This document shows, one piece after another, positions 2,789-63,291 of a DNA stretch of 64,000 nucleotides. Both the position numbers and the translations under genes were made by a program. The notes under the pieces were generated by a model. That model worked only from the letters and a program-made list of their open reading frames with translations. It did not search any database and was not told where the DNA came from. Origin of the DNA: an uncultured Paraburkholderia sp. (lineage in GTDB: Bacteria; Pseudomonadota; Gammaproteobacteria; Burkholderiales; Burkholderiaceae); contig CALNWS010000019.1 of the NCBI GenBank assembly GCA_940747215.1, forward strand, positions 476-64,475, in the 5' to 3' direction. How positions within the stretch are numbered: the stretch's first letter is position 1; every line of letters starts with the position of its first letter.

Positions 2789-3137
2789 GCGCGCTGCACA
2801 CGTCTGTCTGATGTATCCGCCGAAAGGGTCCTATGCATGAGTCCGCCAGATGCCCGCCGCATATATCCCCGATGCATTTGACCGCCATTTCCACCGCGCT
2901 GCCCGCAAGCACGGGCGCGTTGAAAATTGAAGGCAACGAGCGCACCGGGCGAGGCGCGCCGCGTGCGCCTCGTGGCCCCGAACGCTGCACCCTAGGCAGG
3001 GCGCGCGTGCGTGATAGAGTGCAACCTGATCCGCCGTCGGTGGCACGCGACACGCATCGGGGAACGCCCTGCAGAACACGTCGCGCTCCCACGCTCGAAG
3101 CCCGCCATCCTGCATCGTCTTTGCTAAAATCCGAACT

Positions 3138-3713
3138 ATGTCCAAGAGTACCGATCGCATTAATCTGACCAACCAGTTCCTGATCGCCATGCCGAACATG
3201 GCCGATCCGACGTTTTCGGGAACGGTGGTTTACCTTTGCGATCACAGCGAGCGCGGTGCGCTCGGCCTCGTCATCAACCGGCCGACCGATATCGATCTGG
3301 AAGCGCTCTTCAGTCGCATCGACCTCACGCTCGAGATCGAACCCCTTCTCCACGTTCCCGTTTATTTCGGCGGTCCGGTGCAAACCGAGTGCGGCTTCGT
3401 GCTGCACGATCCGAAAGGCGGCGGCTACACGTCTTCCATGTCGGTGCCGGGCGGCCTCGAAATGACCACGTCGAAAGACGTGCTCGAAGCGGTGGCCAGC
3501 GGCAACGGTCCCGAACGTTTCCTGCTCACGCTTGGCCATGCCGGCTGGGGCGCGGGTCAGCTCGAAGAGGAAATCTCGAAGAACGGCTGGCTCACGGTGG
3601 AAGCCGACCCGAAAATCGTCTTCGACGTGCCCGCCGAGGAACGCCTCGAGGCAGCGCTCGCACTGCTTGGCATCAATCTCTCGATGCTGTCGGGCGAGGC
3701 GGGCCACGCATGA
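3138..3713 (+). CDS. yqgE: YqgE/AlgH family protein (UPF0301), intact
   Basis: 191-aa ORF: [49 protein letters not shown]...[17 protein letters not shown], the characteristic family signature. Its stop overlaps the ruvX start (ATGA). Confidence 0.9.
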
Positions 3714-4150
3714 ATCTCGCGGCCGGACGTGAGGCGACGCTGCTTACGTTCGACTACGGAGAAAAACGCATCGGCGTGGCGGTCGGCAATTCGCTCACGC
3801 GCAGCGCGCGGCCGCTCGTCATCGTGCAGAACCGCAGTCGCGAATATCGCTTCGAGGCGGTCGGCAAGCTGATCGCCGAGTGGAAGCCGAATGCGTTGAT
3901 CGTCGGCTTGCCCATGCATCCCGATGGCACGCCGCACGAAATGACCCAGCTTGCGAAACGCTTCGGCAATCAGCTGAATGGCCGCTTCAATCTGCCCGTT
4001 ACGTGGATCGACGAACGCTATTCGTCGGTCGAGGCGAAAGCGGAAATCCGCGCCGGCAACGGCCGCGCCGACATGCTCGACGCCGAAGCCGCCAGCATAA
4101 TCCTCCAGCAATATCTAGACGGACTTTCCGACGATCATGAGCTCCATTGA
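3710..4150 (+). CDS. ruvX: Putative pre-16S rRNA nuclease / Holliday junction resolvase-like YqgF (RuvX), intact
   Basis: [39 protein letters not shown]...[15 protein letters not shown]...[14 protein letters not shown]. Canonical yqgE-yqgF pairing. Confidence 0.9.
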
Positions 4151-4692
4151 CGCCGAAGCGCTTTATCGCGCGTTGCTCGACCAGATTCGCGCGGTGTACG
4201 GCGACCAGCTCGGTGCCGGGCCGAACGGTGCCGAAGGCGCGGTGCTCGCCGGCATTTACAGCAGCGGCGCGTGGCTCGCCGAGCGGTCTCGCCCATGACC
4301 TGAACCTGCCGAGCTTCGGTGTGGTGAACGTGGCGCTGCATCGCGACGACTACGCGAAAAAAGGCCTGCATTCGCAGGCGAGCTCGACCTCGCTGCCGTT
4401 TTCCGTGGACAAGCGCCGCATCGTGCTGGTGGACGACGTGCTGTACACCGGCCGCACGATCCGCGCGGCGCTGAACGAACTGTAAGACTATGGCCGGCCG
4501 GCTTCGGTCGAACTCGCCGTGCTCGCCGATCGCGGCGGCCGCGAGTTGCCGGTGGCGGCGCGCTTCGTAGGCGGTGTGGTAGAGGTTCCCGCCGATTCAA
4601 CGCTTGTGCTTGCCCGCCAGGACGACAGCGCGCAAGGCGACGCAAAAGGCGCCCCGCGTTTCACCTTTCATACCGGGGCACGCGTCGATTGA
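4137..4692 (+). pseudogene. pyrR: pyrR (bifunctional pyrimidine operon regulator / uracil phosphoribosyltransferase), disrupted
   Basis: [22 protein letters not shown]...GIYSSGAWLAER loses its frame at an extra T near 4287. The continuation LAHDLNLPSFGVVNVALHRDDYAKKGL...VLVDDVLYTGRTIRAALNEL lies in the next frame. An in-frame TAA at 4483-4485 follows, where homologs have Tyr (NEL*DYGRPASVELAVLADRGGRELP...). Confidence 0.85.
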
Positions 4693-4851
4693 AGACGCGC
4701 TCCGGTCTGCACGATCGTGAGCCGTCAGCATCGGGTCGCGCCGCGCGTGCAACTGCGTACGAGCCGCCGCGATCCGCAATACCGAAGTCCGTCACACGCA
4801 GTGCGCATCGACACCGATTACGTTGAAGCCCGTTTCTGAAGCAGGTAAATC

Positions 4852-5876
4852 ATGAACACCGCCACCCAGCAGGCCCCTAGGATTCCGCCGACAGCGCCAC
4901 CGAGCGCTTCCGTTATGGCTTCCTAAAGGGCAACCCGCAGTTCACGAAGAATGGCGAGCTCAAACATCTGTTGTCGATCGAAGGGTTGCCTAAGTCGATC
5001 GTCAATCACATTATCGATACCGCTGAGCAGTTCGTCAGCGTGATCGATCGTGAAGTGAAGAAGGTGTCGCTGCTGCGCGGCAAGTCGGTGTTCAACCTCT
5101 TCTTCGAGAACTCCACGCGTACGCGCACCACGTTCGAAATCGCGGCGACGCGTCTGTCGGCGGACGTGCTGAACCTGAACATCAACGCTTCTTCCACGAG
5201 CAAGGGCGAGTCGCTGCTCGACACGATCAATAATCTGTCGGCGATGCACGCGGACCTTTTCGTCGTGCGCCATGCGTCGAGCGGCGCGCCGTATCTGATC
5301 GCCCAGTATTGTGCGCCGCACGTGCACGTGATCAATGCGGGCGACGGGCGTCACGCGCACCCCACGCAGGGGCTGCTCGACGTGTACACGATCCGCCACT
5401 ACAAGAAAGATTTCACGAATCTGCGCGTGGCGATCGTCGGCGACATTCTGCATTCGCGCGTCGCACGTTCCGACATTCACGCGCTCACCACGCTCGGCGT
5501 GCCGGAAGTGCGCACGGTCGGTCCGCGCACGCTTGCTGCTAGGCGGTTTCGAACAGATGGGCGTGCGCGTGCACAATCTCGACGAAGGCCTGAAGGACGT
5601 CGACGTGATCATCAGCTGCGTCTGCAGAACGAGTGGATGAGCGGCGCATTGCTGCCTTCGGTGCAGAAATACTTCAAGAGCTGGGGTTTGACGCCAGAGC
5701 GGCTCGCGCTCGCGAAACCCGACGCGATCGTGATGCACCCCGGTCCGATGAATCGCGGTGTCGAAATCGACTCGCAGGTGGCCGACGGTCCGCAGTCGGT
5801 GATCCTGAATCAGGTGACGTTCGGCATCGCGGTGCGCATGGCGGTGATGGGCATCGGCGTCGGCAATCACGACTGA
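4852..5876 (+). pseudogene. pyrB: pyrB (aspartate carbamoyltransferase catalytic chain), disrupted
   Basis: The body frame reads ...[44 protein letters not shown]...[13 protein letters not shown]...HPTQGLLD.... The upstream ATG (4852) is in a different frame, and the body frame has a TAG at 4878-4880. Internally, a +1 shift near 5531-5535 and a -1 shift near 5614-5616 put about 28 codons out of frame. The correct peptide [27 protein letters not shown] is only seen in the neighbouring frame. The ORF stays open (301 aa) but is scrambled. Confidence 0.8.
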
Positions 5877-5992
5877 TCGCACCGAACACCAGACACATGG
5901 AACGAAGCCGCAGGATAGCACGCGGCACCCGGCAGAACACACTAGTTGAACACCGCGTTGACATAGCGGTTGACACTTACTTAAGGCAGCGT

Positions 5993-7262
5993 ATGAAGAT
6001 TCATATTCAAGGTGGCACGCTGATCGATCCGGCAGCGGGCACCAAACAGCAGCAGGACGTTTTTATCGCGGCGGGCAAGATCGTCGCCATCGGCGAGGCA
6101 CCGGCCGAGTTTCACATGGCGAAGACCATCGACGCGCGCGGCTTGTACGTCGCGCCCGGTCTCGTCGATCTTTCTGCACGTCTGCGCGAACCGGGCTACG
6201 AACATAAGGTCACGCTCGAATCGGAAATGGCGGCGGCGCTCGCGGGCGGCGTGACGAGCCTCGTGTGTCCGCCGGACACCGACCCGACGCTCGACGAACC
6301 CGGTCTCGTCGAAATGCTCAAGTTCCGCGCGCGCAATCTGAACCAGGCGCACGTGTATCCGATCGGCACGCTGACCGTCGGGCTGAAAGGGCAGATCATC
6401 ACCGAGATGGTCGAGTTGACCGAAGCCGGTTGTATCGGCTTCTCGCAGGCCGACGTGTCGGTGGTCGACACGCAGGTTCTGCTGCGCGCGTTGCAGTACG
6501 CGAAGACGTACGGCTTCACGGTGTAGCTCCGTCCTGTGGACGCCTATCTCGGCAAGGGCGGCAAGCGGCGCGCTGGCGTCGCGGCTCGGCTTGTCGGGCG
6601 TGCCGGTGTCGGCGGAAACCATCGCGTTGCACACCATTTTCGAACCTGGTGCGCGTGACGGGCGCCCGCGTGCACCTGTCGCACGTGTCGTCGGCGGCGG
6701 GCATCGCGCTGATGCGCGCGGCCAAGGCCGAGGGCTTGCCGGTGTCGTGCGACGTCACCGTCAATCACGTGCATCTGATCGATCTCGACATCGGCTATTT
6801 CGACGCGCAATTCCGCCTCGATCCGCCGCTGCGTCAACAGCGCGATCGCGAAGCGATCCTCGCAGGTCTCGTGGACAGCACGATCGACGCAATCTGCTCC
6901 GACCACACGTCCGTCGACGACGAAAAGCTGCTGCCATTCGCCGAAGCTACACCGGGCGCAACCGGCCTCGAGCTGTTCCTGTCGCTCACCGTGAAATGGG
7001 CCGACGAAGCCGGCGTGCCGTTCGCCAAGGCGCTGAACCGCATCACCGCGTCGCCGGCCGAAGTGCTCGAGCTGGAAGCGGCGGGGCGCGTCGCCGTGGG
7101 CGGCGTGGCCGACCTGTGCGTGTTCGACCGCAACACGCACTGGCGCGTCGAGCCGCGTGCGCTGAAGAGCCAGGGCACAACACGCCGTTCCTCGGCTACG
7201 AATTGCTGGCACGCGTGCGGGTGACCATTGTGTCCGGTCACGTCGCGTTTGAGCAGCGCTGA
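5993..7262 (+). pseudogene. pyrC: Dihydroorotase-like gene (pyrC'/pyrX-type partner of pyrB), disrupted
   Basis: MKIHIQGGTLIDPAAGTKQQQDVFIAAGKIVAIG...ALQYAKTYGFTV is followed by an in-frame TAG at 6524-6526 (a Trp position; V*LRP). Frame changes follow near 6560, near 6645 (ttcgaaCctggtg) and near 7178. The pieces ASGALASRLGLSGVPVSAETIALHTIFE, VRVTGARVHLSHVSSAAGIALMRAAKAEGLPVSCDVTVNH... and HTPFLGYELLARVRVTIVSGHVAFEQR lie in three frames. Confidence 0.8.
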
Positions 7263-7301
7263 TCGTCGCGCGGCATTGGCTAGTTACGGAAAGCTCCAAC
7301 C

Positions 7302-8008
7302 ATGAAGCTCGCGTTACGCAAGGCTCGTCTCGTACTTCATCTGCTGCACGGCATGTGGATCGTTGCCATGCGCTTCCCGAAGGCAGGCGCGGACGTTCGT
7401 CGCACGCTCAACCGCGAATGGTCGCTGAAAATGCTGCGCCTGTGCGGCATGCGTCTTGTCGTACACAATGACAGCGCGCGGCTCGATCGCGGCACACTCA
7501 CACTGGTAGTCGCCAATCACATCTCGTGGATCGACATCTACGTGATCAACACGTGGCGGCCTACGCCGTTCGTCTCAAAGGCGGAGATCCGCCAGTGGCC
7601 GATCGTCGGCTGGCAGGCACGACGTCGAACGGACTCGCCGTGCTGCCGTTTCGCGCGAACATGTTCCAGGCGGCGGTGTCGGCATCCGTGCCGGTGCAGC
7701 CGCTTTACATCATGTACGAAGACGCGCAGGGCCGGCAGTCCACGGCGCCTGCCTATATCGACGATCTCTCGCTCGCCGATTCGCTGAACCTGCTGCTGGG
7801 CAGCGGTCCGTTGACGGCGCACGTGTATGTCGGCGCGCCGCTTGCGCCGGGCGCGGACCGGCGCACGCTGGCGGCAGAAGCGGAAGGGGTAATTGCCGCC
7901 GCGTTGCGCAAGATGCAGGTCGGCGCGGCGCGTGCTGGCACGGTATTCGTGGAGCGGCCGGAGACGCTATCGGCGCCCGGCGCAATGGTGGAGCCGCCGG
8001 TGGATTAA
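7302..8008 (+). pseudogene. 1-acyl-sn-glycerol-3-phosphate acyltransferase-like (PlsC family) gene with an out-of-frame internal deletion
   Basis: The N-terminal part (…LVVANHISWIDIYVINTWRPTPFVSKAEIRQWPIVGW) carries the HxxxxD-type block. Near 7613-7620 the sequence jumps directly, in another frame, to GTTSNGLAVLPFRANMFQAAVSASVPVQPLYIMYED.... The roughly 40 aa normally lying between the FVxK...P.xG block and the (P)EGTTS block appear to be missing. Confidence 0.65.
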
Positions 8009-8082
8009 CCGCCGGGGCATTCGGCGTAGTTCGCTCGTCGCCTCAAGGAGCGTGAGCCACGCTTTCCTGAAATAACCGCGCG

Positions 8083-8964
8083 CTAGTTGCCGCCGCTAGG
8101 CGCGCGACACGATTCGCAATCCACCTGCGTGAGCGTGCGTTCCGCCGGATCCTGCGTGAGACGCACGGCCGACAGTTTTTCTCCCCACACACAACCCGAG
8201 TCGAGCCCGATCAGGTTGTCGCGCAAGGTCAGACCCAGCGCGGCCCAGTGGCCGAACACCACGGTGACGTCCGCCGTTTTGCGCGACGGCACGTCGAACC
8301 ATGGCATGCAGCCGGCAGGCGCGGTATTCAGGCCGCCGCTGCTCGTGAAATCCATCGTGCCTTCGGCATCGCAAAAGCGCACGCGCGTGAGCGCGCTGCA
8401 CGTGAGACGCAGGCGGTTGATGCCCTTGAGGTTCGGCGTCCAGCGATTCGGCTTGTTGCCATAAAGACCCGCGAGTGTTTCCTTCCAGTCTGGCGCGCGC
8501 AATGCCTTCTGCAGTTCTTCCGCGAGTTCCATCGTCAACGCCGCGTCCCACTGCGGCAGCACGCCCGCGTGCACCATCAGCATGCCGTTCTCGAAATGCG
8601 TGAGCGGCCGGTGACGCACCCAGTCGAGCAGATCGTCCGCGTCGGGCGCGGCGAGAATTTCGTCGATCGTGTCGCCTCTCTTCGATTTGCGAATGCCCGC
8701 CGACACCGACAGCAGATGCAGATCGTGATTGCCCAGCACCGGCACCGCGAGATCGCCGAGCGCGATGATGTCGCGCAGCGTGGCAAGCGACTCGGAGCCA
8801 CGGTTGATCAGATCGCCCGCGAACCACAACGGCGTGCTCGCCAGCGGCGCGGCCTTGGCCAGCAGTTGCTGGAACGGCTTGCGGCAGCCTTGCAGATCGC
8901 CGAAGGCAAGCGGTGCCGGGCGCGGATGGGAAAGGTTGGAAGGCGTGGCGGCGGGTGTCATCAA
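8083..8964 (-). CDS. apaH: Bis(5'-nucleosyl)-tetraphosphatase, symmetrical (ApaH), intact
   Basis: 293-aa ORF with the metallophosphatase motifs FGDLQGC, GDLINRG, GNHDLHLL, VHAG and GHWA. Confidence 0.92.
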   Translation of the reverse strand: MMTPAATPSNLSHPRPAPLAFGDLQGCRKPFQQLLAKAAPLASTPLWFAGDLINRGSESLATLRDIIALGDLAVPVLGNHDLHLLSVSAGIRKSKRGDTIDEILAAPDADDLLDWVRHRPLTHFENGMLMVHAGVLPQWDAALTMELAEELQKALRAPDWKETLAGLYGNKPNRWTPNLKGINRLRLTCSALTRVRFCDAEGTMDFTSSGGLNTAPAGCMPWFDVPSRKTADVTVVFGHWAALGLTLRDNLIGLDSGCVWGEKLSAVRLTQDPAERTLTQVDCESCRAPSGGN

Positions 8965-10080: not shown

Positions 10081-10289
10081 CGGGCCGCTTCCGAGTCGGC
10101 GTCTCACGTCTACACGTCTGCACCGGCATCGCGGCGCAGCCTTCCCATTCCGCTGACGAAACTGGCCCGCGACTCGCACAGAGCCTCAATTTGCGCTCGT
10201 AAAACGGCTTGATGCAGAGCCTGTGAGCGCGCGCTCGATGTACTTTCTCGCGCCAATGGAAACCAAACTTGTCAAGCTGTTTCAAGTTG

Positions 10290-10502
10290 TTAGGGTTCTA
10301 GTTTTTGCCTCGTGCCGCCTTATAATTGGGGTTTCATAAGATTGTTGTCCAAGCGTCTGCCGGCTGCGTGCAGCAAGTCCGCATCGAGTGTGCAAAGGCA
10401 AACGTCGGGTACGTCGAGAACAATCGGACACCACAAGCAGTGAGAGCGGATCGGCGAGGCGCCACGATCCGCCGCTAACATCTAGAAGGAGAAGGGATTT
10501 TC
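10290..10502 (+). promoter_or_regulatory. Putative promoter and structured 5' leader of the rml operon
   Basis: A perfect TATAAT lies at 10321-10326 in an AT-richer patch. A hairpin GCGGATCG/CGATCCGC lies at 10446-10472. The RBS AGGAGAA lies at 10487-10493, 9 nt before the rmlB ATG. No -35 box with convincing spacing was found. Confidence 0.3.
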
Positions 10503-25492: not shown

Positions 25493-28000
25493 ATGCGCAA
25501 GCTTCTGATCACACTCTGCACGCTTCTCACGTGCCTGCATCTGACCAACGCATTCGCAGCCGAAGCCGAAGCGCCTGCCGCGGGCCGCGCGTTTCTCGAT
25601 GCGGTTGCCGTCGCTTCCACCACGCACACGATGCAGCTCGTGGTTTGGGCCGTGGTGCCGGGCGGCAAGGTGGGCGTGCCGACGCTGCATGTGTTCGTCG
25701 ATCAGCAGGAAGTGTATGTGGGCACCGCACAGCAGCAGGTTCGGCCGGACGTCGCCAAGGCAACCGGCCACGCCGAGTGGGCCAACGCGGGCTGGGTGGC
25801 GAGCGTGCCGTTGCCGGCCAGCGTCGGTCCGGGTACGGACAGCCTGCTCGTGCGCGTTCAGTTCGGCGCTTACGTCTGTATGGACAGCCGCCCGTCGTCG
25901 CCGCAAAACGCGTCGATCAGCATTCCCGAGCCGAAGTCGTTCACGCGAGAGATCTGGGGCGTGCTATTGAGTTTCGCCGTCGTGCTCGGCAGCTACTTCT
26001 TCGCGCCTTTGTTAAGCCGTACGCTGTCGCGCGTCACGGGCCGCGCGGTCGCGCCGCAGGCGTCGCCCGTGCTCGGTCTTCTGATCTGCTTTGCGCTTTT
26101 CGTCGGCTTCGGCGTGTCGGGCACGTCGGTTCACGAAACGGAAGGTGCGTCGCTGCCCATTCAGGGCATCCGCACGACGGTGATTGCGGGCGAGAGCCGG
26201 CCGATCCGCAGCGATGAATGGCTCGTGTTGTCGACAATGGCGATCGGACAGGTGCGCGCCGATCCCGCATTTCCGGTCGTGAACAAAGACGTCGGCCCCG
26301 ACGGCCAGAACATGCTGGTAGTCGGCATGACGTCGGTGCCGGTGCTCGACGTTTCCGCGTTGGGGCGCCCCGCCACGTGGGGCTACTTCTTCCTGCCGCT
26401 GCCTCAGGCGATGGCGTGGCACTGGTGGTTCCCTGCGTTCGCGTGCGTACTTGGATTGTGGGCATGCCTGTCGCTGCTGCTTCCCGGACGCTGGCGCACG
26501 ACGCTCGTGCTGTCGTTATGTTTCGTGCTGTCGCCGTATGTCGTCGCGTGGTCGTACTGGCCCGCGTACGTCACCCTGTTCGCCGCCACCGCATTTGTGG
26601 CGGTCGTTACCTTGCTCAAGGACGGCAACCGGCTGTTGAAGCCGTTGCTGGCGGCGGTGGTGGGCATTAGCGCGGGCGGCTTCGCGCTGACGCTCTATCC
26701 CGCGTGGCAGGTGCCGCTCGCTTATCTGTTCGCGCTGCTGCTGGTGGGCGTGGCGGTGCGCGACTGGCGCTCGCTCAGGTTCTCCGTCGGTAACATCGCG
26801 TGGCTCGTGCTCGGGCTCGTGCTGGCGGGTGTCATCGTCGGATCGTGGTGGCTCCATGCGCGCGACGCGGTGGCGGCGATGGTCGTGACGATCTATCCGG
26901 GACAGCGTACAGCGGTGCCGGGCGGCGGCATCGAGCCGTGGTACATGGCGCGCGGCTTCACCAATTTCAGGACGCTGTATTCGGACCTGCAAGGCTTCAC
27001 GAATCAGAGCGAGGTGTCGTCGTTCCTGTATTTCTTCGTGCCGGCGCTCGTAGGCGCGGTGTTCAATCGCGCGCACTCCGGCCGCAACAAGCCGGTGTTC
27101 TACGCGATCCTCGCCTTCATGGCGCTGACGTTCTGGTATCAGTACATCGGCTTTCCCGTCGCGCTGGCCAAGCTGACGCAATGGGGCCGCTCGTTCCCGA
27201 CGCGTGCCGATATCGCGCTCGGCGTGGCGTCGTTCGCGCTGCTCGGACTCGCGCTCGCGAAAGAGGGCGGAGAAGCGCGCGAATCGCATCCGCTGCCTTT
27301 GGAGCGCATCGGCGCGTGCATCGCGGCGGCGGTGTGGGTCGCGATTCTCTACTGGAGCATGCGGGAAATGCCTGGCCCGATCGCCGGTTTGATGGACCGG
27401 CCGCGCATGGTGCTGATGCTCGTCGTGATCGGCTGGTGTTCGTATGCGCTCGCGTCGCGCTGGTCCGGCGCGTTCCTCGCGTCGCTGCTTGCGCTGCTGC
27501 TTTTCACGACCGCCGCCTTCAATCCGTGGACGGTCATCACGGCGTCCGCCCAGCCGAAGCCCGCCGTGGGCAGTTGCGCGATGGGCGATGGGCGCACGCT
27601 GGTGCTCGGTTCGCACGTGCCGGCCATGACCTTGATGGCCTCCGGCTGCGAGGTGCTCGATGGCGTGTCCTACTATCCGCAGATGTCGCTGTGGCACAAG
27701 CTGGATCCGGGCGGACAGCAAAGCCAGGTCTACAACCGCTATATGCATCTGCTCGTCGACGTGGGCGATCTGCACGGCTCGCCGGCCGCGCAGATCATGA
27801 CGCCGCAAAGCGACGTGGTTCGCATGACACTCGACCCCAAAGGCTTCGACTTCGTGCAGTTGCCAATTGCCTACGTGCTGGTGCGCGCGGACATCGCGGC
27901 CGCGCTCGAGTCGAATCCTTCGTTGCAGAAAATGACACCGCTCTCGGCCGTGTGGTCGCGTTTCAAGGTGGTCCGCAAAGACGCGAACGGCCAGTCCTAA
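25493..28000 (+). CDS. Large polytopic membrane protein, candidate GT-C-type periplasmic glycosyltransferase (835 aa), uncharacterised
   Basis: Signal peptide MRKLLITLCTLLTCLHLTNAFA. Then an about 130-aa beta-rich segment and roughly 13-15 hydrophobic segments. An acidic loop motif RPIRSDEWLV follows the second TM. The C-terminal about 170 aa form a soluble domain. Uninterrupted ORF. The GT-C assignment is inferred from architecture and context. Confidence 0.5.
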   Translation: MRKLLITLCTLLTCLHLTNAFAAEAEAPAAGRAFLDAVAVASTTHTMQLVVWAVVPGGKVGVPTLHVFVDQQEVYVGTAQQQVRPDVAKATGHAEWANAGWVASVPLPASVGPGTDSLLVRVQFGAYVCMDSRPSSPQNASISIPEPKSFTREIWGVLLSFAVVLGSYFFAPLLSRTLSRVTGRAVAPQASPVLGLLICFALFVGFGVSGTSVHETEGASLPIQGIRTTVIAGESRPIRSDEWLVLSTMAIGQVRADPAFPVVNKDVGPDGQNMLVVGMTSVPVLDVSALGRPATWGYFFLPLPQAMAWHWWFPAFACVLGLWACLSLLLPGRWRTTLVLSLCFVLSPYVVAWSYWPAYVTLFAATAFVAVVTLLKDGNRLLKPLLAAVVGISAGGFALTLYPAWQVPLAYLFALLLVGVAVRDWRSLRFSVGNIAWLVLGLVLAGVIVGSWWLHARDAVAAMVVTIYPGQRTAVPGGGIEPWYMARGFTNFRTLYSDLQGFTNQSEVSSFLYFFVPALVGAVFNRAHSGRNKPVFYAILAFMALTFWYQYIGFPVALAKLTQWGRSFPTRADIALGVASFALLGLALAKEGGEARESHPLPLERIGACIAAAVWVAILYWSMREMPGPIAGLMDRPRMVLMLVVIGWCSYALASRWSGAFLASLLALLLFTTAAFNPWTVITASAQPKPAVGSCAMGDGRTLVLGSHVPAMTLMASGCEVLDGVSYYPQMSLWHKLDPGGQQSQVYNRYMHLLVDVGDLHGSPAAQIMTPQSDVVRMTLDPKGFDFVQLPIAYVLVRADIAAALESNPSLQKMTPLSAVWSRFKVVRKDANGQS

Positions 28001-43284: not shown

Positions 43285-44244
43285 ATGACCCAGCGAGTGC
43301 TAATCACCGGCGCCGACGGCTTCGTCGGCAAGGCTGTGTCGAAGGCGCTGGTGCAGCGCGGCGACAGCGTCGTGGGCGTGGTACGCCACGCGCAGCGCGC
43401 GGCACCGGGCGTGCGGGAATGGCTCTTCGACGCGAACGATTTCGAGGGCATCTACGGACGCTGGCCGGTCGGCATGCATTGCGATGCGGTGATCCATCTC
43501 GCTGCCCGGGTCCACATGATGCGCGAGACCACGGCCGATCCGCTCGCGGCCTATCGCGCCACCAACGTCACGGGCGCGTTGCGCGTGGCCGCCGCGGCGC
43601 GCCGCGCGGGCGCGCGCCGCTTCGTATTCGTGAGCAGCATCAAGGCGGTGGGCGAGGGCAGCCAAGGCCGCGCCATCAAGGAAACGGACGAGCCGCAGCC
43701 GAGCGATCCTTACGGCATCTCCAAACTCGAAGCCGAACGCGCGCTGATGCAGTACGATCGCGAGTCCGGACTCGAAGTGGTGATCGTGCGGCCGCCGCTG
43801 GTCTACGGCCCGGGCGTGCGGGCGAACTTCCTGCGGCTGATGAACGCCATTGCCCGCGGCGTGCCGCTACCGCTCGGCGCGATCGCGGCGCGTCGCAGCC
43901 TCGTATTCGTCGACAACCTCGCGGACGCGCTCGTGCATTGCACCACCGACCCGCGCGCCGCGTGGCAGACGTTTCACGTGACCGACGGGCGCGACCTGAG
44001 CGTCTCCGAACTGGCGCGCGGACTGGCCACGCAGCTGCACGTGCCGGCGCGGCTCGTGCCGGTGCCGGTCAGCCTGCTAAAGCTCGCGGGACGGCTCACC
44101 GGCCGCTCCGCGCAGATCGACCGGCTGATCGGCGAGTTGCGCCTCGACAGCTCGCACCTGTGCGAGTGTCTTGGGTGGTATCCGCCGCATACGGTCGAGC
44201 ATGGTCTGCTCGAAACCGCTGCGTGGTACCGGTCGGCGCACTGA
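43285..44244 (+). CDS. NAD-dependent nucleotide-sugar epimerase/dehydratase (WbiG-like SDR)
   Basis: MTQRVLITGADGFVGKAV...SSIKAVGE...DPYGISKLEAE (YxxxK)...VIVRPPLVYGPG. 319 aa. Confidence 0.85.
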   Translation: MTQRVLITGADGFVGKAVSKALVQRGDSVVGVVRHAQRAAPGVREWLFDANDFEGIYGRWPVGMHCDAVIHLAARVHMMRETTADPLAAYRATNVTGALRVAAAARRAGARRFVFVSSIKAVGEGSQGRAIKETDEPQPSDPYGISKLEAERALMQYDRESGLEVVIVRPPLVYGPGVRANFLRLMNAIARGVPLPLGAIAARRSLVFVDNLADALVHCTTDPRAAWQTFHVTDGRDLSVSELARGLATQLHVPARLVPVPVSLLKLAGRLTGRSAQIDRLIGELRLDSSHLCECLGWYPPHTVEHGLLETAAWYRSAH

Positions 44245-44383
44245 CTCGCCGCGCGGCGTCCGCGTGCTTCGTACGCTGTTCTTACAGGATGTTCGTTCGC
44301 GCTGTTCATAAGCATTGTTCGTACGGCTAGCTCACGATTAACCTGCGCTTAACCGATATTCAAACCGTCTTAACTTATCGTCG

Positions 44384-45415
44384 ATGTCGATTGTGCCGCT
44401 TGCCCTGCTTTCCGCTCATTCCGCTATCCCGTTGTTCCTGTGGGGTGCCGTCGCGCTGTGTGCCTGCGCGGCGATTCTGTGGGCGCTGCTCGGAACCGGC
44501 CTCGCCTGGCGCCTCGCCACCGACATCCCCAATGACCGCTCGTTGCACACACGGCCCACGCCGCGCGTCGGCGGCTGGGGCATCGTGCCGGTGGCGGTGC
44601 TGCTGATCGGGCTCGCGGAGCCCGCGCTGTGGCTTCCCGCGCTCGCGGCGGCGCTGCTCGCGGCGCTTTCGCAGATCGACGACCGACGCGGCCTGCCGGC
44701 GCGCGTGCGCTTCGGCGGCCATGCGGCGGCGGTGGCGCTGCTGGTGGCGGTGTATCCCGCGGACGTGCCGTGGTGGGCGCTCGCATGCATGGCGGTTTTA
44801 CTCGTCTGGCTGGTCAATTTATACAATTTCATGGACGGCTCGGACGGACTCGCCGGCGGCATGGCGCTCTTCGGCTTCGCAGGGTATGCGATCGCCGCGT
44901 CGATTTCGAGCCGGCCCGACCCTGCGCTCGCCCTTGCCTGCGCGATCGTGGCGGGCGCGGCGGCGGGCTTCCTCCTGTTCAATTTTCATCCGGCGCGTAT
45001 TTTTCTCGGCGACGCCGGTTCTATCCCGCTCGGCTTTCTCGCCGGCGCGCTGGGTTACTGGGGCTGGCGCGAGAGCATCTGGCCAGTCTGGTTTCCCGCA
45101 GTGTGCTTTTCGGCGTTCATCGGCGATGCTTCGGTGACGCTGCTCAAACGTCTGCTTCGCGGAGAAAAGTTCTGGCAGGCGCATCGCGAACACTACTATC
45201 AAAGACTGGTGCAGTCGGGCTTCGGACACGCCCCGACCACTTGGGTTTGGTATTTGGTCATGGTCGCGGGCATAATGCTTGCTTTGTGGGCAATGGAAGT
45301 TGCCGTGCTGTATCAATGGCTGGTTGTGGTCGCGTGGGCTGTCGTACTCGTCGTCGCCGGGCTGTGCATTGATCGCCGCTGGCGGCACCATCTGTCCCGT
45401 TCCAGGCAATCCTGA
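44384..45415 (+). CDS. Polyprenyl-phosphate N-acetylhexosamine-1-phosphate transferase (GT4-family MraY/WecA/WbpL; WbiH-like)
   Basis: 343 aa, polytopic. DIPNDRSLHTRPTPRVGG, NLYNFMDGSDGLAGG, FLGDAGSIPLGF. Confidence 0.85.
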   Translation: MSIVPLALLSAHSAIPLFLWGAVALCACAAILWALLGTGLAWRLATDIPNDRSLHTRPTPRVGGWGIVPVAVLLIGLAEPALWLPALAAALLAALSQIDDRRGLPARVRFGGHAAAVALLVAVYPADVPWWALACMAVLLVWLVNLYNFMDGSDGLAGGMALFGFAGYAIAASISSRPDPALALACAIVAGAAAGFLLFNFHPARIFLGDAGSIPLGFLAGALGYWGWRESIWPVWFPAVCFSAFIGDASVTLLKRLLRGEKFWQAHREHYYQRLVQSGFGHAPTTWVWYLVMVAGIMLALWAMEVAVLYQWLVVVAWAVVLVVAGLCIDRRWRHHLSRSRQS

Positions 45416-45426
45416 GGTTTAGCGCA

Positions 45427-47310
45427 ATGAAAAGATTCAAAGCCCGATGGCTTTCGTTCAATGCGTTCGCGTTCGACCTGTGCGCAGTAGCTTTGGCTTG
45501 GATGCTGGCATACGTGATCCGTTTCAACGGACCGGTGCCCGACCCATTCTGGTGGAGCGGGCTGTATGCACTCGTGTGGGTGCTTTTGATCTACGCCGTG
45601 ATGTTCCGCAGCTACGGTCTGTACCGCGGCATGTGGGTCTTCGCGAGCCTGCCCGATCTCGTGCGTATCGCAAAGGCGATCGGCGTCGGTGCGCTGGTTG
45701 TCATGATCGGCTCCGCGCTGCTGCAACCCGCGCCGGTCGTACCCCGTTCCGTTCTGATCGTTTCGCCCATGCTGCTGTTTCTGGCGATGGGCGGCTCGCG
45801 CGCGCTCTATCGCGCGGCCAAGGAGTTCTATCGCTACGGCGGTCTCGTAGGCCAAGGCAAGCCCGTGCTCGTGCTCGGCGCGGGTAATGCCGGCGCGAAT
45901 CTCGTGCGCGAACTGAAGCGTTCGGGCGAATGGCGTCTCGCCGGTCTGCTCGACGACGATCCGGTCAAGCAGGGCCGCGAAATCTACGGCTACCGCGTGC
46001 TCGGCGCGATCAGCGATCTGCAGAAAATCACCGCCGACCTGAAAGTCGAGCACGTGATCATCGCGGTGCCGTCGGCCTCCGTGGAGGCGCACCGCCGCAT
46101 CGCCACGCTGTGCGTGCGCGCCGGTGTGCGCGCCATGACACTGCCGGCGCTCACGCCGCTCACGCAAGACCAGGCGTTTCTGTCGCGCGTGCGTCAGATC
46201 GATCTGGAGGACCTGCTGGGCCGCGATCCGGTGATGGTCGACACCGAACACGTCGAAGCGCTGCTCAAGAACCGCGTCGTGATGGTGATGGGCGCGGGCG
46301 GCTCGATTGGCTCCGAGCTGTGCCGCCAGATTCTGCGCTTCGGTCCCGTGCAACTGCTCGCGCTCGACATCTCCGAGTTCGCGATCTACCGTCTGAACGA
46401 AGAGCTGCGCGACAAGTATCCGGAAGTGTCGGTGGTGCCGGTCATCGGCGACGTGAAGGATTCGCTGCTGCTCGATCAGGTGATGGCGCGCTACTGTCCA
46501 CACATCGTCTTCCACGCGGCCGCCTACAAGCACGTGCCGCTCATGGAAGAGGTCAATACGTGGCAGGCGGTGCGCAACAACGTGCTCGGCACTTATCGGG
46601 TGGCGCGCGCGGCGATCCGCCACGACGTCGCCCACTTCGTGCTGATTTCCACCGACAAGGCCGTCAACCCGACCAACGTGATGGGCGCGAGCAAGCGGCT
46701 CGCCGAGATGGCGTGCTCCGCATTGCAGGCGCAGGGCACGCGGCGCACGCAGTTCGAGATCGTGCGCTTCGGCAACGTGCTCGGCAGCGCGGGCAGCGTT
46801 ATTCCGAAGTTCCAGGAACAGATTGCGCGCGGCGGTCCGGTCACCGTCACGCACCCGGAAATCACGCGCTTTTTCATGACGATTCCCGAGGCGTCGCAGC
46901 TCGTGCTGCAGGCATCGAGCATGGGGCGCGGCGGCGAGATTTTCATTCTCGACATGGGCAAGCCGGTGCGGATCGCCGATCTCGCGCACGACCTGATCCG
47001 TCTGTACGGTTTTGGCGAAGAGCAGATCCGCGTAGTGTTCACGGGGCTGCGCCCCGGCGAAAAGCTCTACGAGGAGCTGCTCGCCGACGACGAAATCACT
47101 ACGCGCACGCCGCATCCGAAGCTGCGTATCGCGCGTGTGCGCGAGGTGCCAGACAGCCTGATTGACAATCTGCTGCCGTGGCTCATGCAGCATCGCGTAC
47201 CGACCGACGACGAAGTGCGCCGCGACCTGCGCCGCTGGGTGCCGGAGTATAAGCCGGGTACGTCGACGTTGTTGCGCAGCGTGCCGGTGGTCACGACACG
47301 GGCGTCCTGA
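45427..47310 (+). CDS. Membrane-anchored nucleotide-sugar 4,6-dehydratase/epimerase (CapD/WbpM/PglF family; WbiI-like)
   Basis: 627 aa. Four N-terminal TM segments, VLGAGNAGANL, MVMGAGGSIGSEL, STDKAVNPTNVMGASKRLAE, RFGNVLGSAGSVIP. Confidence 0.9.
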   Translation: MKRFKARWLSFNAFAFDLCAVALAWMLAYVIRFNGPVPDPFWWSGLYALVWVLLIYAVMFRSYGLYRGMWVFASLPDLVRIAKAIGVGALVVMIGSALLQPAPVVPRSVLIVSPMLLFLAMGGSRALYRAAKEFYRYGGLVGQGKPVLVLGAGNAGANLVRELKRSGEWRLAGLLDDDPVKQGREIYGYRVLGAISDLQKITADLKVEHVIIAVPSASVEAHRRIATLCVRAGVRAMTLPALTPLTQDQAFLSRVRQIDLEDLLGRDPVMVDTEHVEALLKNRVVMVMGAGGSIGSELCRQILRFGPVQLLALDISEFAIYRLNEELRDKYPEVSVVPVIGDVKDSLLLDQVMARYCPHIVFHAAAYKHVPLMEEVNTWQAVRNNVLGTYRVARAAIRHDVAHFVLISTDKAVNPTNVMGASKRLAEMACSALQAQGTRRTQFEIVRFGNVLGSAGSVIPKFQEQIARGGPVTVTHPEITRFFMTIPEASQLVLQASSMGRGGEIFILDMGKPVRIADLAHDLIRLYGFGEEQIRVVFTGLRPGEKLYEELLADDEITTRTPHPKLRIARVREVPDSLIDNLLPWLMQHRVPTDDEVRRDLRRWVPEYKPGTSTLLRSVPVVTTRAS

Positions 47311-47424: not shown

Positions 47425-48522
47425 TCAGCGACGCGACCTCCGCACCACCATCCAGCGAGGCGACTTGAACCGCACGATGCTCACGTAAAGCCAGACATAC
47501 GTCGCGGCAAACACCATCACGAAGCAGAACAGATGCAGCGTGTGCCGCCAGAACAGCGTGGCGGGCACCACGGCGATCAGACACAGCAGCCACAGATACG
47601 GCGACGTGAGCGAGTTGCGGCGCGTCAGTTCGCGCGCGGTGCGTGTGCCAACCGCCCAGTGCATCAGACGCTTGTAGACGAGCATGTGCAGATGCACGCC
47701 GTCGGGAATACCCGGCGACATGCCGCGAATGAATTTTTTCCGGTAGATCGAGAAACACGTCTCGAAGATCGGATACATTAAGAGCAGAATCGGATACCAC
47801 GCCGACACGTCGCGATTGCGCATCACGAGCATGATCGACAGTTCGGCGAGCATGAAGCCGATGAAATAGGCACCGCCGTCACCGAGAAAAATTAGACCGG
47901 CCGGGAAATTCCAGATGAAGAAGCCGAGCACCGCGCCCATCATCATGAACGACGCCGACAGCACGATCGGATCGGACACTTGGAACGCCACGTAGGCGAG
48001 CGAGGCGAACATCATGAAGGCGACCATCGACGCGAGGCCGTTGAAGCCGTCGATGATATTGATCGCGTTGGCGAGCGCGGTGACCGCGAGCACCGTGACC
48101 GCACACGAAATCACCGCGTACGAGAGCAGGAAATCGAGCGGCGGCACGCTGATGCGCGTGACGGCGATGTTCAGCATGAAGTACGCGAGCGCGGCGGCGG
48201 CCATCGTGCAGACGAACCGCACGAGTGGCGACACGCGCTTGGTCAGATCTTCGATGAGGCCAGAACCGAACGCGGGCATGCCGCACGCGATCAGCCCGAG
48301 AATGCCGTCCGACACGGCCGGATACGCGTGATGCAGTTGCACGGCGGAGACAATCAGCCCGAGCAGAATTCCCGTGCCGCCGATGCGCGGCACCGGACGC
48401 GCGTGAAACTTCTGTACGCCGCCCAGATCGGTGTCAGCGAATTTTTCATGCAGATGCGCGTAGCGCACGATCAACAGCGTGATCAGCAGTGAAACGAGAA
48501 AGCCGAGCGCAAAACTAAGCAT
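47425..48522 (-). CDS. Second polyprenyl-phosphate HexNAc-1-P transferase (WecA-like, GT4 family)
   Basis: MLSFALGFLVSLLITLLIV...KFHARPVPRIGG...NIIDGFNGLASM...FLGDGGAYFIGF. The ORF is open to 48573, but the ATG at 48522 fits the first TM helix. Confidence 0.83.
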   Translation of the reverse strand: MLSFALGFLVSLLITLLIVRYAHLHEKFADTDLGGVQKFHARPVPRIGGTGILLGLIVSAVQLHHAYPAVSDGILGLIACGMPAFGSGLIEDLTKRVSPLVRFVCTMAAAALAYFMLNIAVTRISVPPLDFLLSYAVISCAVTVLAVTALANAINIIDGFNGLASMVAFMMFASLAYVAFQVSDPIVLSASFMMMGAVLGFFIWNFPAGLIFLGDGGAYFIGFMLAELSIMLVMRNRDVSAWYPILLLMYPIFETCFSIYRKKFIRGMSPGIPDGVHLHMLVYKRLMHWAVGTRTARELTRRNSLTSPYLWLLCLIAVVPATLFWRHTLHLFCFVMVFAATYVWLYVSIVRFKSPRWMVVRRSRR

Positions 48523-48828
48523 GAAAGTGGGCCTGAGTGAAGAAGCCGAATTATACAAACGAACGCCCGACACCCGGCAAAGCAGCCTTGTTGCGCGATG
48601 CGCCGCGAATCCCAGATAGTGGCGAAAATCGCCCGCAAACGCCCGCCAGTCATGGATTTCACCTATCTAGCACGGCCTTTTACGGACCGTTAACCTGGTT
48701 GCGGCGAAGTGTAGGTCACGCGCAACAAGAGAAAGCGCCGGCGAGGAATGGCACCTGATGAATCGGAAGGCACGCGAGGGCCCGGCATCACGCCGTGCCA
48801 CCGTTCGACCGCACGTTCCGGAGACCCC

Positions 48829-50380
48829 ATGCTAAAAACATCACCATTCGTGGTGGGCTGACGCTGGTTATCAGCGTGTTCGTCGCTTTCCTGCTAATCG
48901 TGATCGGCGTCGGCTATGGCGCTCTCAAGCTCGCCAACAGTAGTCTTGGCGACACGCAGCGCAGTTCCGCCGCGCTGTCGCATCTGAAGGCCAGCTCCGA
49001 AAAACTGTTGCAGGTGCAACTGGCGCTCGGCACGTATCAGACGCTCTTCAGCATCGGCAAGCAGACCGACGACCTGCTGCCCACCGCGCACAAGGTGCTG
49101 GCGGAATCGAGCAAGGACTTTGCCAACTAACTACATGTCCGGTCCGTTCGTGAGCGACGAGGAAAAGGCACTCGCACAGGCGGTCGCGCAGGCGCGCACG
49201 GCGCTCGTCGAGAAGGCGATGGAGCCAGAATTCAAGGCGCTCGCGGATTTCGACTTCAACACGTTCCGCAATATTCAGGGCGATACGGCCAATAGCCTCT
49301 ACGCGGCGTACTCGAAAGCGATCGACTCGCTCGAGCGCGTACAGATCGCCAATCAGCATCGGCAGGCCGAGACCGGCGCATCGCGCTTCCAGATGGCGAC
49401 GCTGCTGTTCGTCGCGATCGGCGCGCTCGCGATTGCGATTGGCGTGGCGGCGCGCATCGGTTTATCGGCGGCGCTGATCAAGCCGGTAAACGCGACGGTC
49501 AGGCACTTCGAGCGTATCGCCGCGGGCGACCTGACTGGGGCGATCCGCGTCAAGTCGCGCAACGAGATGGGGCAGTTGCTCGGCGCATTGGCGACGATGC
49601 GCGACGGCCTCGTCGAAACCGTGTCGAAAGTGCGCGGCAGCACGAGCGCGATCACGCAAGGCGCGAACGGAATCGCCTCGGGCAAGGCGGACCTCTCGTC
49701 TCGCACCGAACAGCAGGCGGCGGCCTTGCAGCAGACCGCAGCCAGCATGGAGCAGCTCTCGGCCACGGTGAAGCAGAACGCGGACAACGCGAAGCAGGCG
49801 AACCGTCTTGCGCAGGGCGCGCTCGACACCGTGACGCGCGGCGGTACCGTCGTCTCGCGCGTCACGCAGACGATGGACGGCATCACCGAGTCGTCGCGCG
49901 AGGTCGCGGAGATCATCGGCATGATCGAGGGCATCGCATTCCAGACGAACATTCTCGCGTTGAATGCGGCGGTGGAAGCGGCGCGCGGGTGAACAGGGGC
50001 GCGGTTCGCGGTGGTGGCCTCGGAAGTGCGCAGCCTCGCGCAGCACTCCGGCGCGGCGGCCAAGGAGATCAAGGAGCTGATCGGCGCGTCGGCGGCGAAG
50101 GTGGAAGAGGGCGCGTTGCTCGTATCGGACGCGCAGAAGACCATTCAGGAAGCGCTCGGTGCCGTGCAGCGCGTGACGGGCGTCATGCACGAGATCGAGG
50201 CTTCGGCACTCGAACAGAGCGACGGCATCGAACAGGTCAACAAGGCCGTTTCGCAGATCGACGAAGTCACGCAACAGAACGCGGCGCTCGTCGAGCAGGC
50301 CGCGGCTGCGGCGCGGTTCGCTCGACGAGCATGCGGTGACGTTGCGTGACGCTGTGTTGGTGTTTCAGGTCGCTGCGTGA
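48829..50380 (+). pseudogene. Methyl-accepting chemotaxis protein, multiply disrupted
   Basis: ATG 48829 (ML) precedes an A5 run (48834-38) that is one A short, so KNITIRGGLTLVISVFVAFLL continues in another frame. An AACTAACT 4-bp duplication (49125-49132) creates a TAA and a frameshift. The HAMP domain (IKPVNATVRHFERIAAGDLTG) and the signalling domain (QTNILALNAAVEAAR) follow. The conserved GEQGRGFAVVA is locally out of frame and creates a TGA at 49990-92. A last frameshift near 50305-15 precedes ...GSLDEHAVTLRDAVLVFQVAA*. Confidence 0.82.
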
Positions 50381-63216: not shown

Positions 63217-63291
63217 GGGTGGTTAGCTCAGCGGTAAAGCACTGCCTTCACACGGCAGGGGTCACTGGTTCGATCCCAGTACTGCCCACCA
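63217..63291 (+). tRNA. tRNA-Val (anticodon CAC)
   Basis: A 75-nt cloverleaf read by hand. Acceptor GGGTGGT/ACTGCCC with two adjacent G-U wobbles. D arm GCTC..AAGC with a C-A mismatch. Anticodon stem CTGCC/GGCAG with loop TTCACAC. T arm ACTGG-TTCGATC-CCAGT. Encoded CCA. Confidence 0.88.

Follow-up and report, generated by a model that had tools for sequence, protein, structure and literature searches.

Decay of the pyrR-pyrB-pyrC' operon into three pseudogenes in an uncultured Paraburkholderia, most likely a leaf endophyte

Can the pyrR-pyrB-pyrC' operon of an uncultured Paraburkholderia still provide its cell with an aspartate transcarbamoylase (ATCase) and, if not, what would the loss mean for the bacterium that carries it? 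The question is raised by positions 4137-7262 of a 64,000-nucleotide stretch of contig CALNWS010000019.1 (assembly GCA_940747215.1), referred to here as the window, in which NCBIfam assignments identify pyrR, pyrB and a dihydroorotase-like pyrC' in this order on the + strand. In Pseudomonas, the class A ATCase was reportedly found by Schurr et al. in 1995 to be built from catalytic PyrB together with PyrC', an inactive dihydroorotase-like protein. The Pseudomonas PyrC' serves solely as the structural partner of PyrB and is needed for the active holoenzyme, while PyrR acts as a regulator. As set out below, all three genes in the window are pseudogenes, and the locus is predicted to yield no functional ATCase catalytic chain, PyrC' partner or PyrR regulator. 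We consider it well supported that the best explanation is decay of the operon as one part of the erosion of the genome of a host-restricted leaf endophyte.

As an intact reference we used Paraburkholderia ginsengisoli (locus L001), the closest relative found when genome contigs were scanned for pyrB, followed by Trinickia soli (L002). In both of these, each of the three pyr genes lies in a single frame. The gene order in the window is collinear with both, as well as with the locus of Candidatus Burkholderia ardisicola Acor (L072), the leaf-nodule symbiont of Ardisia cornudentata. Lesion coordinates were obtained from a nucleotide alignment of window positions 4101-7320 to the P. ginsengisoli locus (about 82% identity), together with translations of the frames, and conservation was counted over a set of 80 Burkholderiales pyr loci. 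The features of the operon are as follows.

4137..4692, + strand: pyrR pseudogene (NCBIfam NF003545; alignment to P. ginsengisoli)
4693..4851, + strand: spacer between pyrR and pyrB (alignment to P. ginsengisoli)
4852..5876, + strand: pyrB pseudogene (NCBIfam ATCase catalytic subunit; alignment to P. ginsengisoli; translations)
5533..5613, + strand: out-of-frame segment within pyrB (translations), aligned with residues 221-254 of PyrB from P. ginsengisoli
5993..7262, + strand: pyrC' pseudogene, for the predicted non-catalytic, dihydroorotase-like ATCase partner (NCBIfam NF005791; tblastn; alignment to P. ginsengisoli)

Relative to the intact orthologs, we counted two frame-breaking or nonsense lesions in pyrR, four in pyrB and four in pyrC'. 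In pyrR, an additional T at 4287 leaves the N-terminal 50 codons in one frame and the remainder in the next, and a TAC codon has become TAA at 4483-4485. The gene also carries in-frame changes (24 nt added at 4218-4241 and 6 nt removed at 4640), and the PyrR model NF003545 matches it in three separate pieces, all of them under the curated cut-off. In pyrB, the N-terminal region is damaged by a net gain of two bases at 4870-4871 and by a CAG to TAG change at 4878-4880. Further downstream, an additional T at about 5531-5534 is followed by the loss of one base at 5614, so that the conserved 27-residue peptide encoded by 5533-5613 can be read only in the +1 frame, while the frame of the open reading frame (ORF) gives an arginine-rich string in place of the residues conserved in relatives. 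Three bases are also missing in frame at 5571. Finally, in pyrC' a TGG codon has become TAG at 6524-6526, and the frame is shifted three times, by the loss of eight bases at about 6556-6560, an additional C at 6645 and the loss of a G at 7172; an in-frame deletion of three bases lies at 6914. The dihydroorotase model NF005791 (PRK07627) matches this gene in three pieces in three frames, and tblastn returned four high-scoring segment pairs (HSPs), likewise in three frames.

The preliminary description of this DNA had reported a +1 insertion and a TAA in pyrR, an N-terminal disruption and an internal out-of-frame segment of about 28 codons in pyrB, and a TAG with three frameshifts in pyrC'. The alignment and the translations recover every one of these, the segment in pyrB being 27 codons long. 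They also brought to light a lesion that it had not listed: at 5634-5636 of pyrB a CGG codon has become TGG, which turns LRLQNERM into LRLQNEWM. All 80 of the Burkholderiales loci keep the arginine that has been replaced by tryptophan here; we take this arginine to be Arg234 of the E. coli enzyme.

The four point lesions (4483, 4878, 5634 and 6524) are all changes from G/C to A/T. Both spacers are shorter than in P. ginsengisoli, the one between pyrR and pyrB (4693-4851) by five deletions totalling 43 nt and the one at 5877-5992 by several small deletions amounting to 38 nt. Over the whole pyr locus about 124 nt have been deleted and 29 nt inserted relative to P. ginsengisoli, which would agree with a bias towards deletion.

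The protein that pyrC' once encoded appears to have been of the non-catalytic type. Among solved structures, intact PyrC' comes closest to the Aquifex dihydroorotase from its complex with ATCase (3D6N), whose HxH zinc motif reads IDIHVHLRDPG; the window, P. ginsengisoli and the intact relatives have VDLSARLREPG. Because the HxH metal motif is thus replaced by SxR, we assign PyrC' to the non-catalytic class, in agreement with the name it bears in the preliminary description; a gene outside this locus must then encode the true dihydroorotase. That PyrB depends on PyrC' in Paraburkholderia is assumed here, by analogy with Pseudomonas.

Are these lesions present in the organism? Every sampled word of the stretch (100%) is present in two public sequencing runs. 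The Logan contigs of these runs, which were assembled independently of one another (55,119 and 55,207 bases, at depths of 80 and 97), do not differ from the window by a single letter or gap over 3000-8200, although, being contigs only, they leave minority alleles invisible. It had been proposed that read data might expose the 5531-5616 segment and the 4878 TAG as errors; instead, the contigs of both runs, at 80-97x, reproduce the window sequence at these sites. Genes that are intact in the organism and broken only by sequencing or assembly artefacts would have to produce identical contigs at that depth from two samples, with lesions of mixed types, among them three nonsense substitutions, the loss of 8 nt and the gain of 2 nt, and with none of the indels in a homopolymer of more than 4 nt. 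They would also have to account for similar damage in nearby genes and for an origin in what a preprint describes as Illumina 2x150 data (10.1101/2022.09.27.509721). Frameshifts are a common error on some platforms, rare variants are lost from contigs of this kind, and the window itself may have been assembled from one of the two runs, which is why an artefact keeps a sliver of probability, the smallest we assign to any explanation considered here. Sequencing error was rejected on the agreement of the two runs, the mixture of lesion types and the absence of long homopolymers.

The intact state is also seen in relatives. Contigs from four other runs carry it at no fewer than 11 of the lesion sites, namely at each of those that follow. 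In pyrR they have one base fewer at 4287 and a C at 4485. In pyrB they have two bases fewer at 4870 and one fewer at 5531/5534, an added TTC at 5571, an added T at 5614 and a C at 5634. In pyrC' they have a G at 6525, eight more bases at 6556, one fewer at 6645 and an added CGA at 6914. For sites 4878 and 7172, the intact state is known from the alignment to P. ginsengisoli alone. Among the 80 Burkholderiales loci, pyrB and pyrC' are unsplit in 78. The lesions are thus real and multiple, and the intact sequence of the relatives at the sites listed marks them as derived changes of the window's own lineage. Contigs from one run, X3, a DNA run of 2021, are about 92% identical to window positions 4100-7300 and intact at the lesion sites; this relative stands much nearer to the window than P. 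ginsengisoli does, and nearer than the nearest known species, with its reported <83% average nucleotide identity (ANI).

Turning to the catalytic gene itself, pyrB might be thought to retain activity in spite of its lesions. Because the +1 and -1 shifts cancel after 27 codons, an ORF at 4971-5876 stays open over 301 amino acids, and its score with the ATCase equivalog model, 358 bits, exceeds the cut-off of 263. In the intact PyrB, moreover, the core shared with the Bacillus ATCase starts only at residue 36, following an N-terminal extension of about 35 residues, so that the N-terminal damage, taken by itself, might be survived through a restart at TTG 4971 (or CTG 4968) that yields the 301-residue core; a second route to a working protein would be for slippage, of the ribosome or during transcription, to bypass the frameshifts. 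Either route has to contend with some 27 residues, conserved among relatives, that have turned arginine-rich, with a tryptophan in place of the invariant arginine of the LRLQxERM motif, and with a partner, PyrC', that carries a stop and three frameshifts, while the shift sites lack slippery homopolymers. Recoding or slippage was rejected since slippery tracts are absent and both TAG and TAA stops are present. Because of the out-of-frame segment, the Arg to Trp change and the destroyed partner, an active enzyme from this broken pyrB is very unlikely, and we would give the idea scarcely more room than an artefact. The score of the open frame has a practical consequence: since this 301-residue frame scores above a curated ATCase threshold, automatic annotation or metabolic reconstruction could count the broken pyrB as functional.

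How far does the damage extend beyond the operon? The state of the neighbouring genes was checked over positions 1-13.6 kb of the window. Those next to the operon are the following.

3138..3713, + strand: yqgE, intact, 191 amino acids in a single ORF; one HSP, 94.8% identical to the P. ginsengisoli ortholog
3710..4150, + strand: ruvX, intact, 146 amino acids in one frame; one HSP each to P. ginsengisoli and Trinickia soli
7302..8008, + strand: plsC/olsA-like acyltransferase, broken (NCBIfam pieces; two HSPs to the orthologs of Trinickia soli and the Acor symbiont)

The two genes immediately upstream, yqgE and ruvX, are thus uninterrupted, as had been stated at the outset. The gene at 33-699 on the - strand has a frame change at 304-308, and the gene at 1415-2700, the ortholog of a 484-residue P. 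ginsengisoli protein, is found as four HSPs in three frames. In the acyltransferase gene the frame changes at about 7616-7625 and about 36 residues are missing compared with its orthologs in Trinickia and the Acor symbiont. It is read as two ORFs in separate frames, one matching the N-terminal and the other the C-terminal half of the same set of NCBIfam models. The genes that are whole include apaH (8083-8964) and those at 10.5-13 kb. The claim of the preliminary description that the whole pyr block is inactivated therefore stands in so far as all three genes are independently hit pseudogenes, but its emphasis on a block was overstated, as breakage extends to the genes at 33-699, 1415-2700 and 7302-8008. 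Inactivation targeted at the block was rejected, given a similar rate of breakage in nearby genes. Because these genes are broken too, three adjacent pseudogenes are not far from expectation.

Several further observations concern the window at large. An Rfam scan revealed no RNA element in or near the pyr block, its sole match in the window being a tRNA at 63217-63288, and a search for contigs encoding the YqgE of the window gave no match. In 2-kb bins the AT skew is strong at 26001-28000 (-0.26), 44001-46000 (-0.30) and 48001-50000 (+0.18).

Selection on the three genes was compared through the ratio of nonsynonymous to synonymous substitution rates (dN/dS). For pyrB this is 0.21 between the window and P. 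ginsengisoli, compared with 0.059 between the two intact orthologs, a rise of about 3.5-fold in which the 27 out-of-frame codons are included. In the other two genes it is hardly raised, at 0.17 compared with 0.146 for pyrC' and 0.20 compared with 0.19 for pyrR (window and intact pair, respectively). This pattern fits a recent loss of constraint.

Which organism does the window come from? The two runs that contain it were made from differently labelled samples of one study (P1), which also includes a run of the Acor symbiont. Since the runs of this study fit a preprint on leaf endophytes (10.1101/2022.09.27.509721), the source is most likely Candidatus Paraburkholderia dryadicola, an uncultured endophyte of Vangueria leaves. 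The name was given there to the endophytes of V. dryadum and V. macrocalyx, which share >99.9% ANI with each other and <83% with any known Paraburkholderia. The same preprint reports rampant null and frameshift mutations in the Vangueria endophytes and no isolate on 10% tryptic soy agar (TSA) or Reasoner's 2A agar (R2A). Neither the preprint nor its supplements examined mention the pyr genes, and our literature search found no pyrB pseudogenes in Burkholderia symbionts. While this type of decay is known, the present case and the repeated hits to pyrB in leaf symbionts described below appear to be undescribed in the literature searched.

In such an organism, the operon would have decayed to three pseudogenes amid an erosion that runs through the whole genome. 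The process might have started when de novo pyrimidine synthesis came under weaker selection, or when one subunit was hit; the two remaining genes would then have been left without a role, and all three would have gathered indels and GC to AT nonsense changes under drift. Several points weigh against this reading. Since at least a third of the local genes are broken, finding three pseudogenes side by side is in itself no evidence that the pathway was targeted. The barely raised dN/dS of pyrR and pyrC' means either that the decay is recent or that the test is weak. A divergent or acquired ATCase may have escaped the search for a second copy, which worked at 80% identity or more. The name of the organism is drawn from the labels of runs, and the preprint found no essential pathway whose loss is consistent among leaf endophytes (10.1101/2022.09.27.509721).

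Does the dead locus, then, make the cell dependent on its host for pyrimidines? We lean, by a modest degree, towards a cell that lacks any other ATCase and draws its pyrimidines from the host. In Burkholderia sensu lato, pyrB is normally present as a single copy. A search of the two runs with the window for a second pyrB at least 80% identical to that of P. ginsengisoli brought up no further copy at any contig depth; long matches came solely from the contig of the window itself. Both facts make it harder to suppose that the locus is dead and the cell nevertheless no auxotroph, whether saved by a second ATCase, be it a divergent paralog or one gained by horizontal transfer, or by an intermediate such as orotate supplied by the host. 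The search for a second copy could see only genes with at least 80% nucleotide identity to that of P. ginsengisoli, which leaves room for such a rescue, and in leaf endophytes horizontal acquisition is frequent and no essential pathway is consistently missing (10.1101/2022.09.27.509721). Against this, the organism was not isolated on 10% TSA or R2A (10.1101/2022.09.27.509721), and both pyrC and pyrE are gone from another symbiont of this group, Burkholderia sp. Lv-StB (PMC7042692). We therefore regard a rescued, prototrophic cell as unlikely, although clearly less so than an artefact or an active pyrB.

Should the cell indeed have no ATCase at all, the endophyte depends on the plant for pyrimidines. 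A dependence of this kind would be a defined metabolic tie in the nutrition of this symbiosis, and supplementation with uracil, uridine or orotate would be a cheap idea for cultivation. Otherwise, the locus offers a textbook case of gene decay, module by module, in a recently host-restricted bacterium.

In light of this, it is of interest how the operon fares in other leaf symbionts. The organism of the window resembles the leaf symbionts of Rubiaceae and Primulaceae in their rampant frameshift and nonsense pseudogenes, their G+C content of 59-64% and their resistance to cultivation (10.1101/2022.09.27.509721). In the Acor symbiont, pyrR, pyrB and pyrC' are all split (L072, 9246-12180). It is the sole locus of the 80 in which all three are; one other, L076, has a split pyrC' only. 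Other runs were compared on the intact pyrB of P. ginsengisoli (9884-10909 of L001), with the following results, all in positions of L001.

X22 (the run that contains L072): pyrB with one base lost at 10149
X23 and X24 (relatives of L072, from different studies): pyrB with an uncompensated insertion of GC at 10296
X25 (another relative of L072): pyrB with an insertion of CGCAT at 10346 and of G at 10398
X21 (another endophyte, from the same study as the window): pyrB without gaps

Judging by the sequence words that they share, the organisms of X23 to X25 are taken to be Ardisia symbionts. The pyr lesions differ between the window, L072 and the relatives of L072 and, because they differ in each lineage, the losses of pyrB are independent. 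Several leaf symbionts, though not all of them, thus carry damage to pyrB from different mutations, which suggests repeated loss. A bolder step, which we offer tentatively and rate somewhat below even chances, would be to see the loss of the ATCase module as a convergent outcome of life in leaves, where plants would feed pyrimidines to their symbionts and auxotrophy would be one reason why these have not been cultured. The tally on which such convergence would rest, to be held with the same reserve, is one loss in the Vangueria endophyte and at least three among Caballeronia-type relatives of the Ardisia symbiont.

Outside leaves, the nearest parallel is Burkholderia sp. Lv-StB, a defensive symbiont of Lagria beetles, in which pyrC and pyrE are missing and which has been judged host-dependent for nucleotides (PMC7042692). 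Like the organism of the window, it is a symbiont of the Burkholderia lineage with an eroding genome and losses in de novo pyrimidine synthesis. However, the step affected here is that of ATCase and the host is a plant, and the genes can still be recognised as pseudogenes, whereas in Lv-StB they are absent. In its architecture, finally, the locus follows the pyrR-pyrB-pyrC' operon of Pseudomonas, with the same gene order, a PyrC' that lacks the HxH ligands and a PyrB with an N-terminal extension of about 35 residues; it departs from that operon in that all three genes in the window have become pseudogenes.

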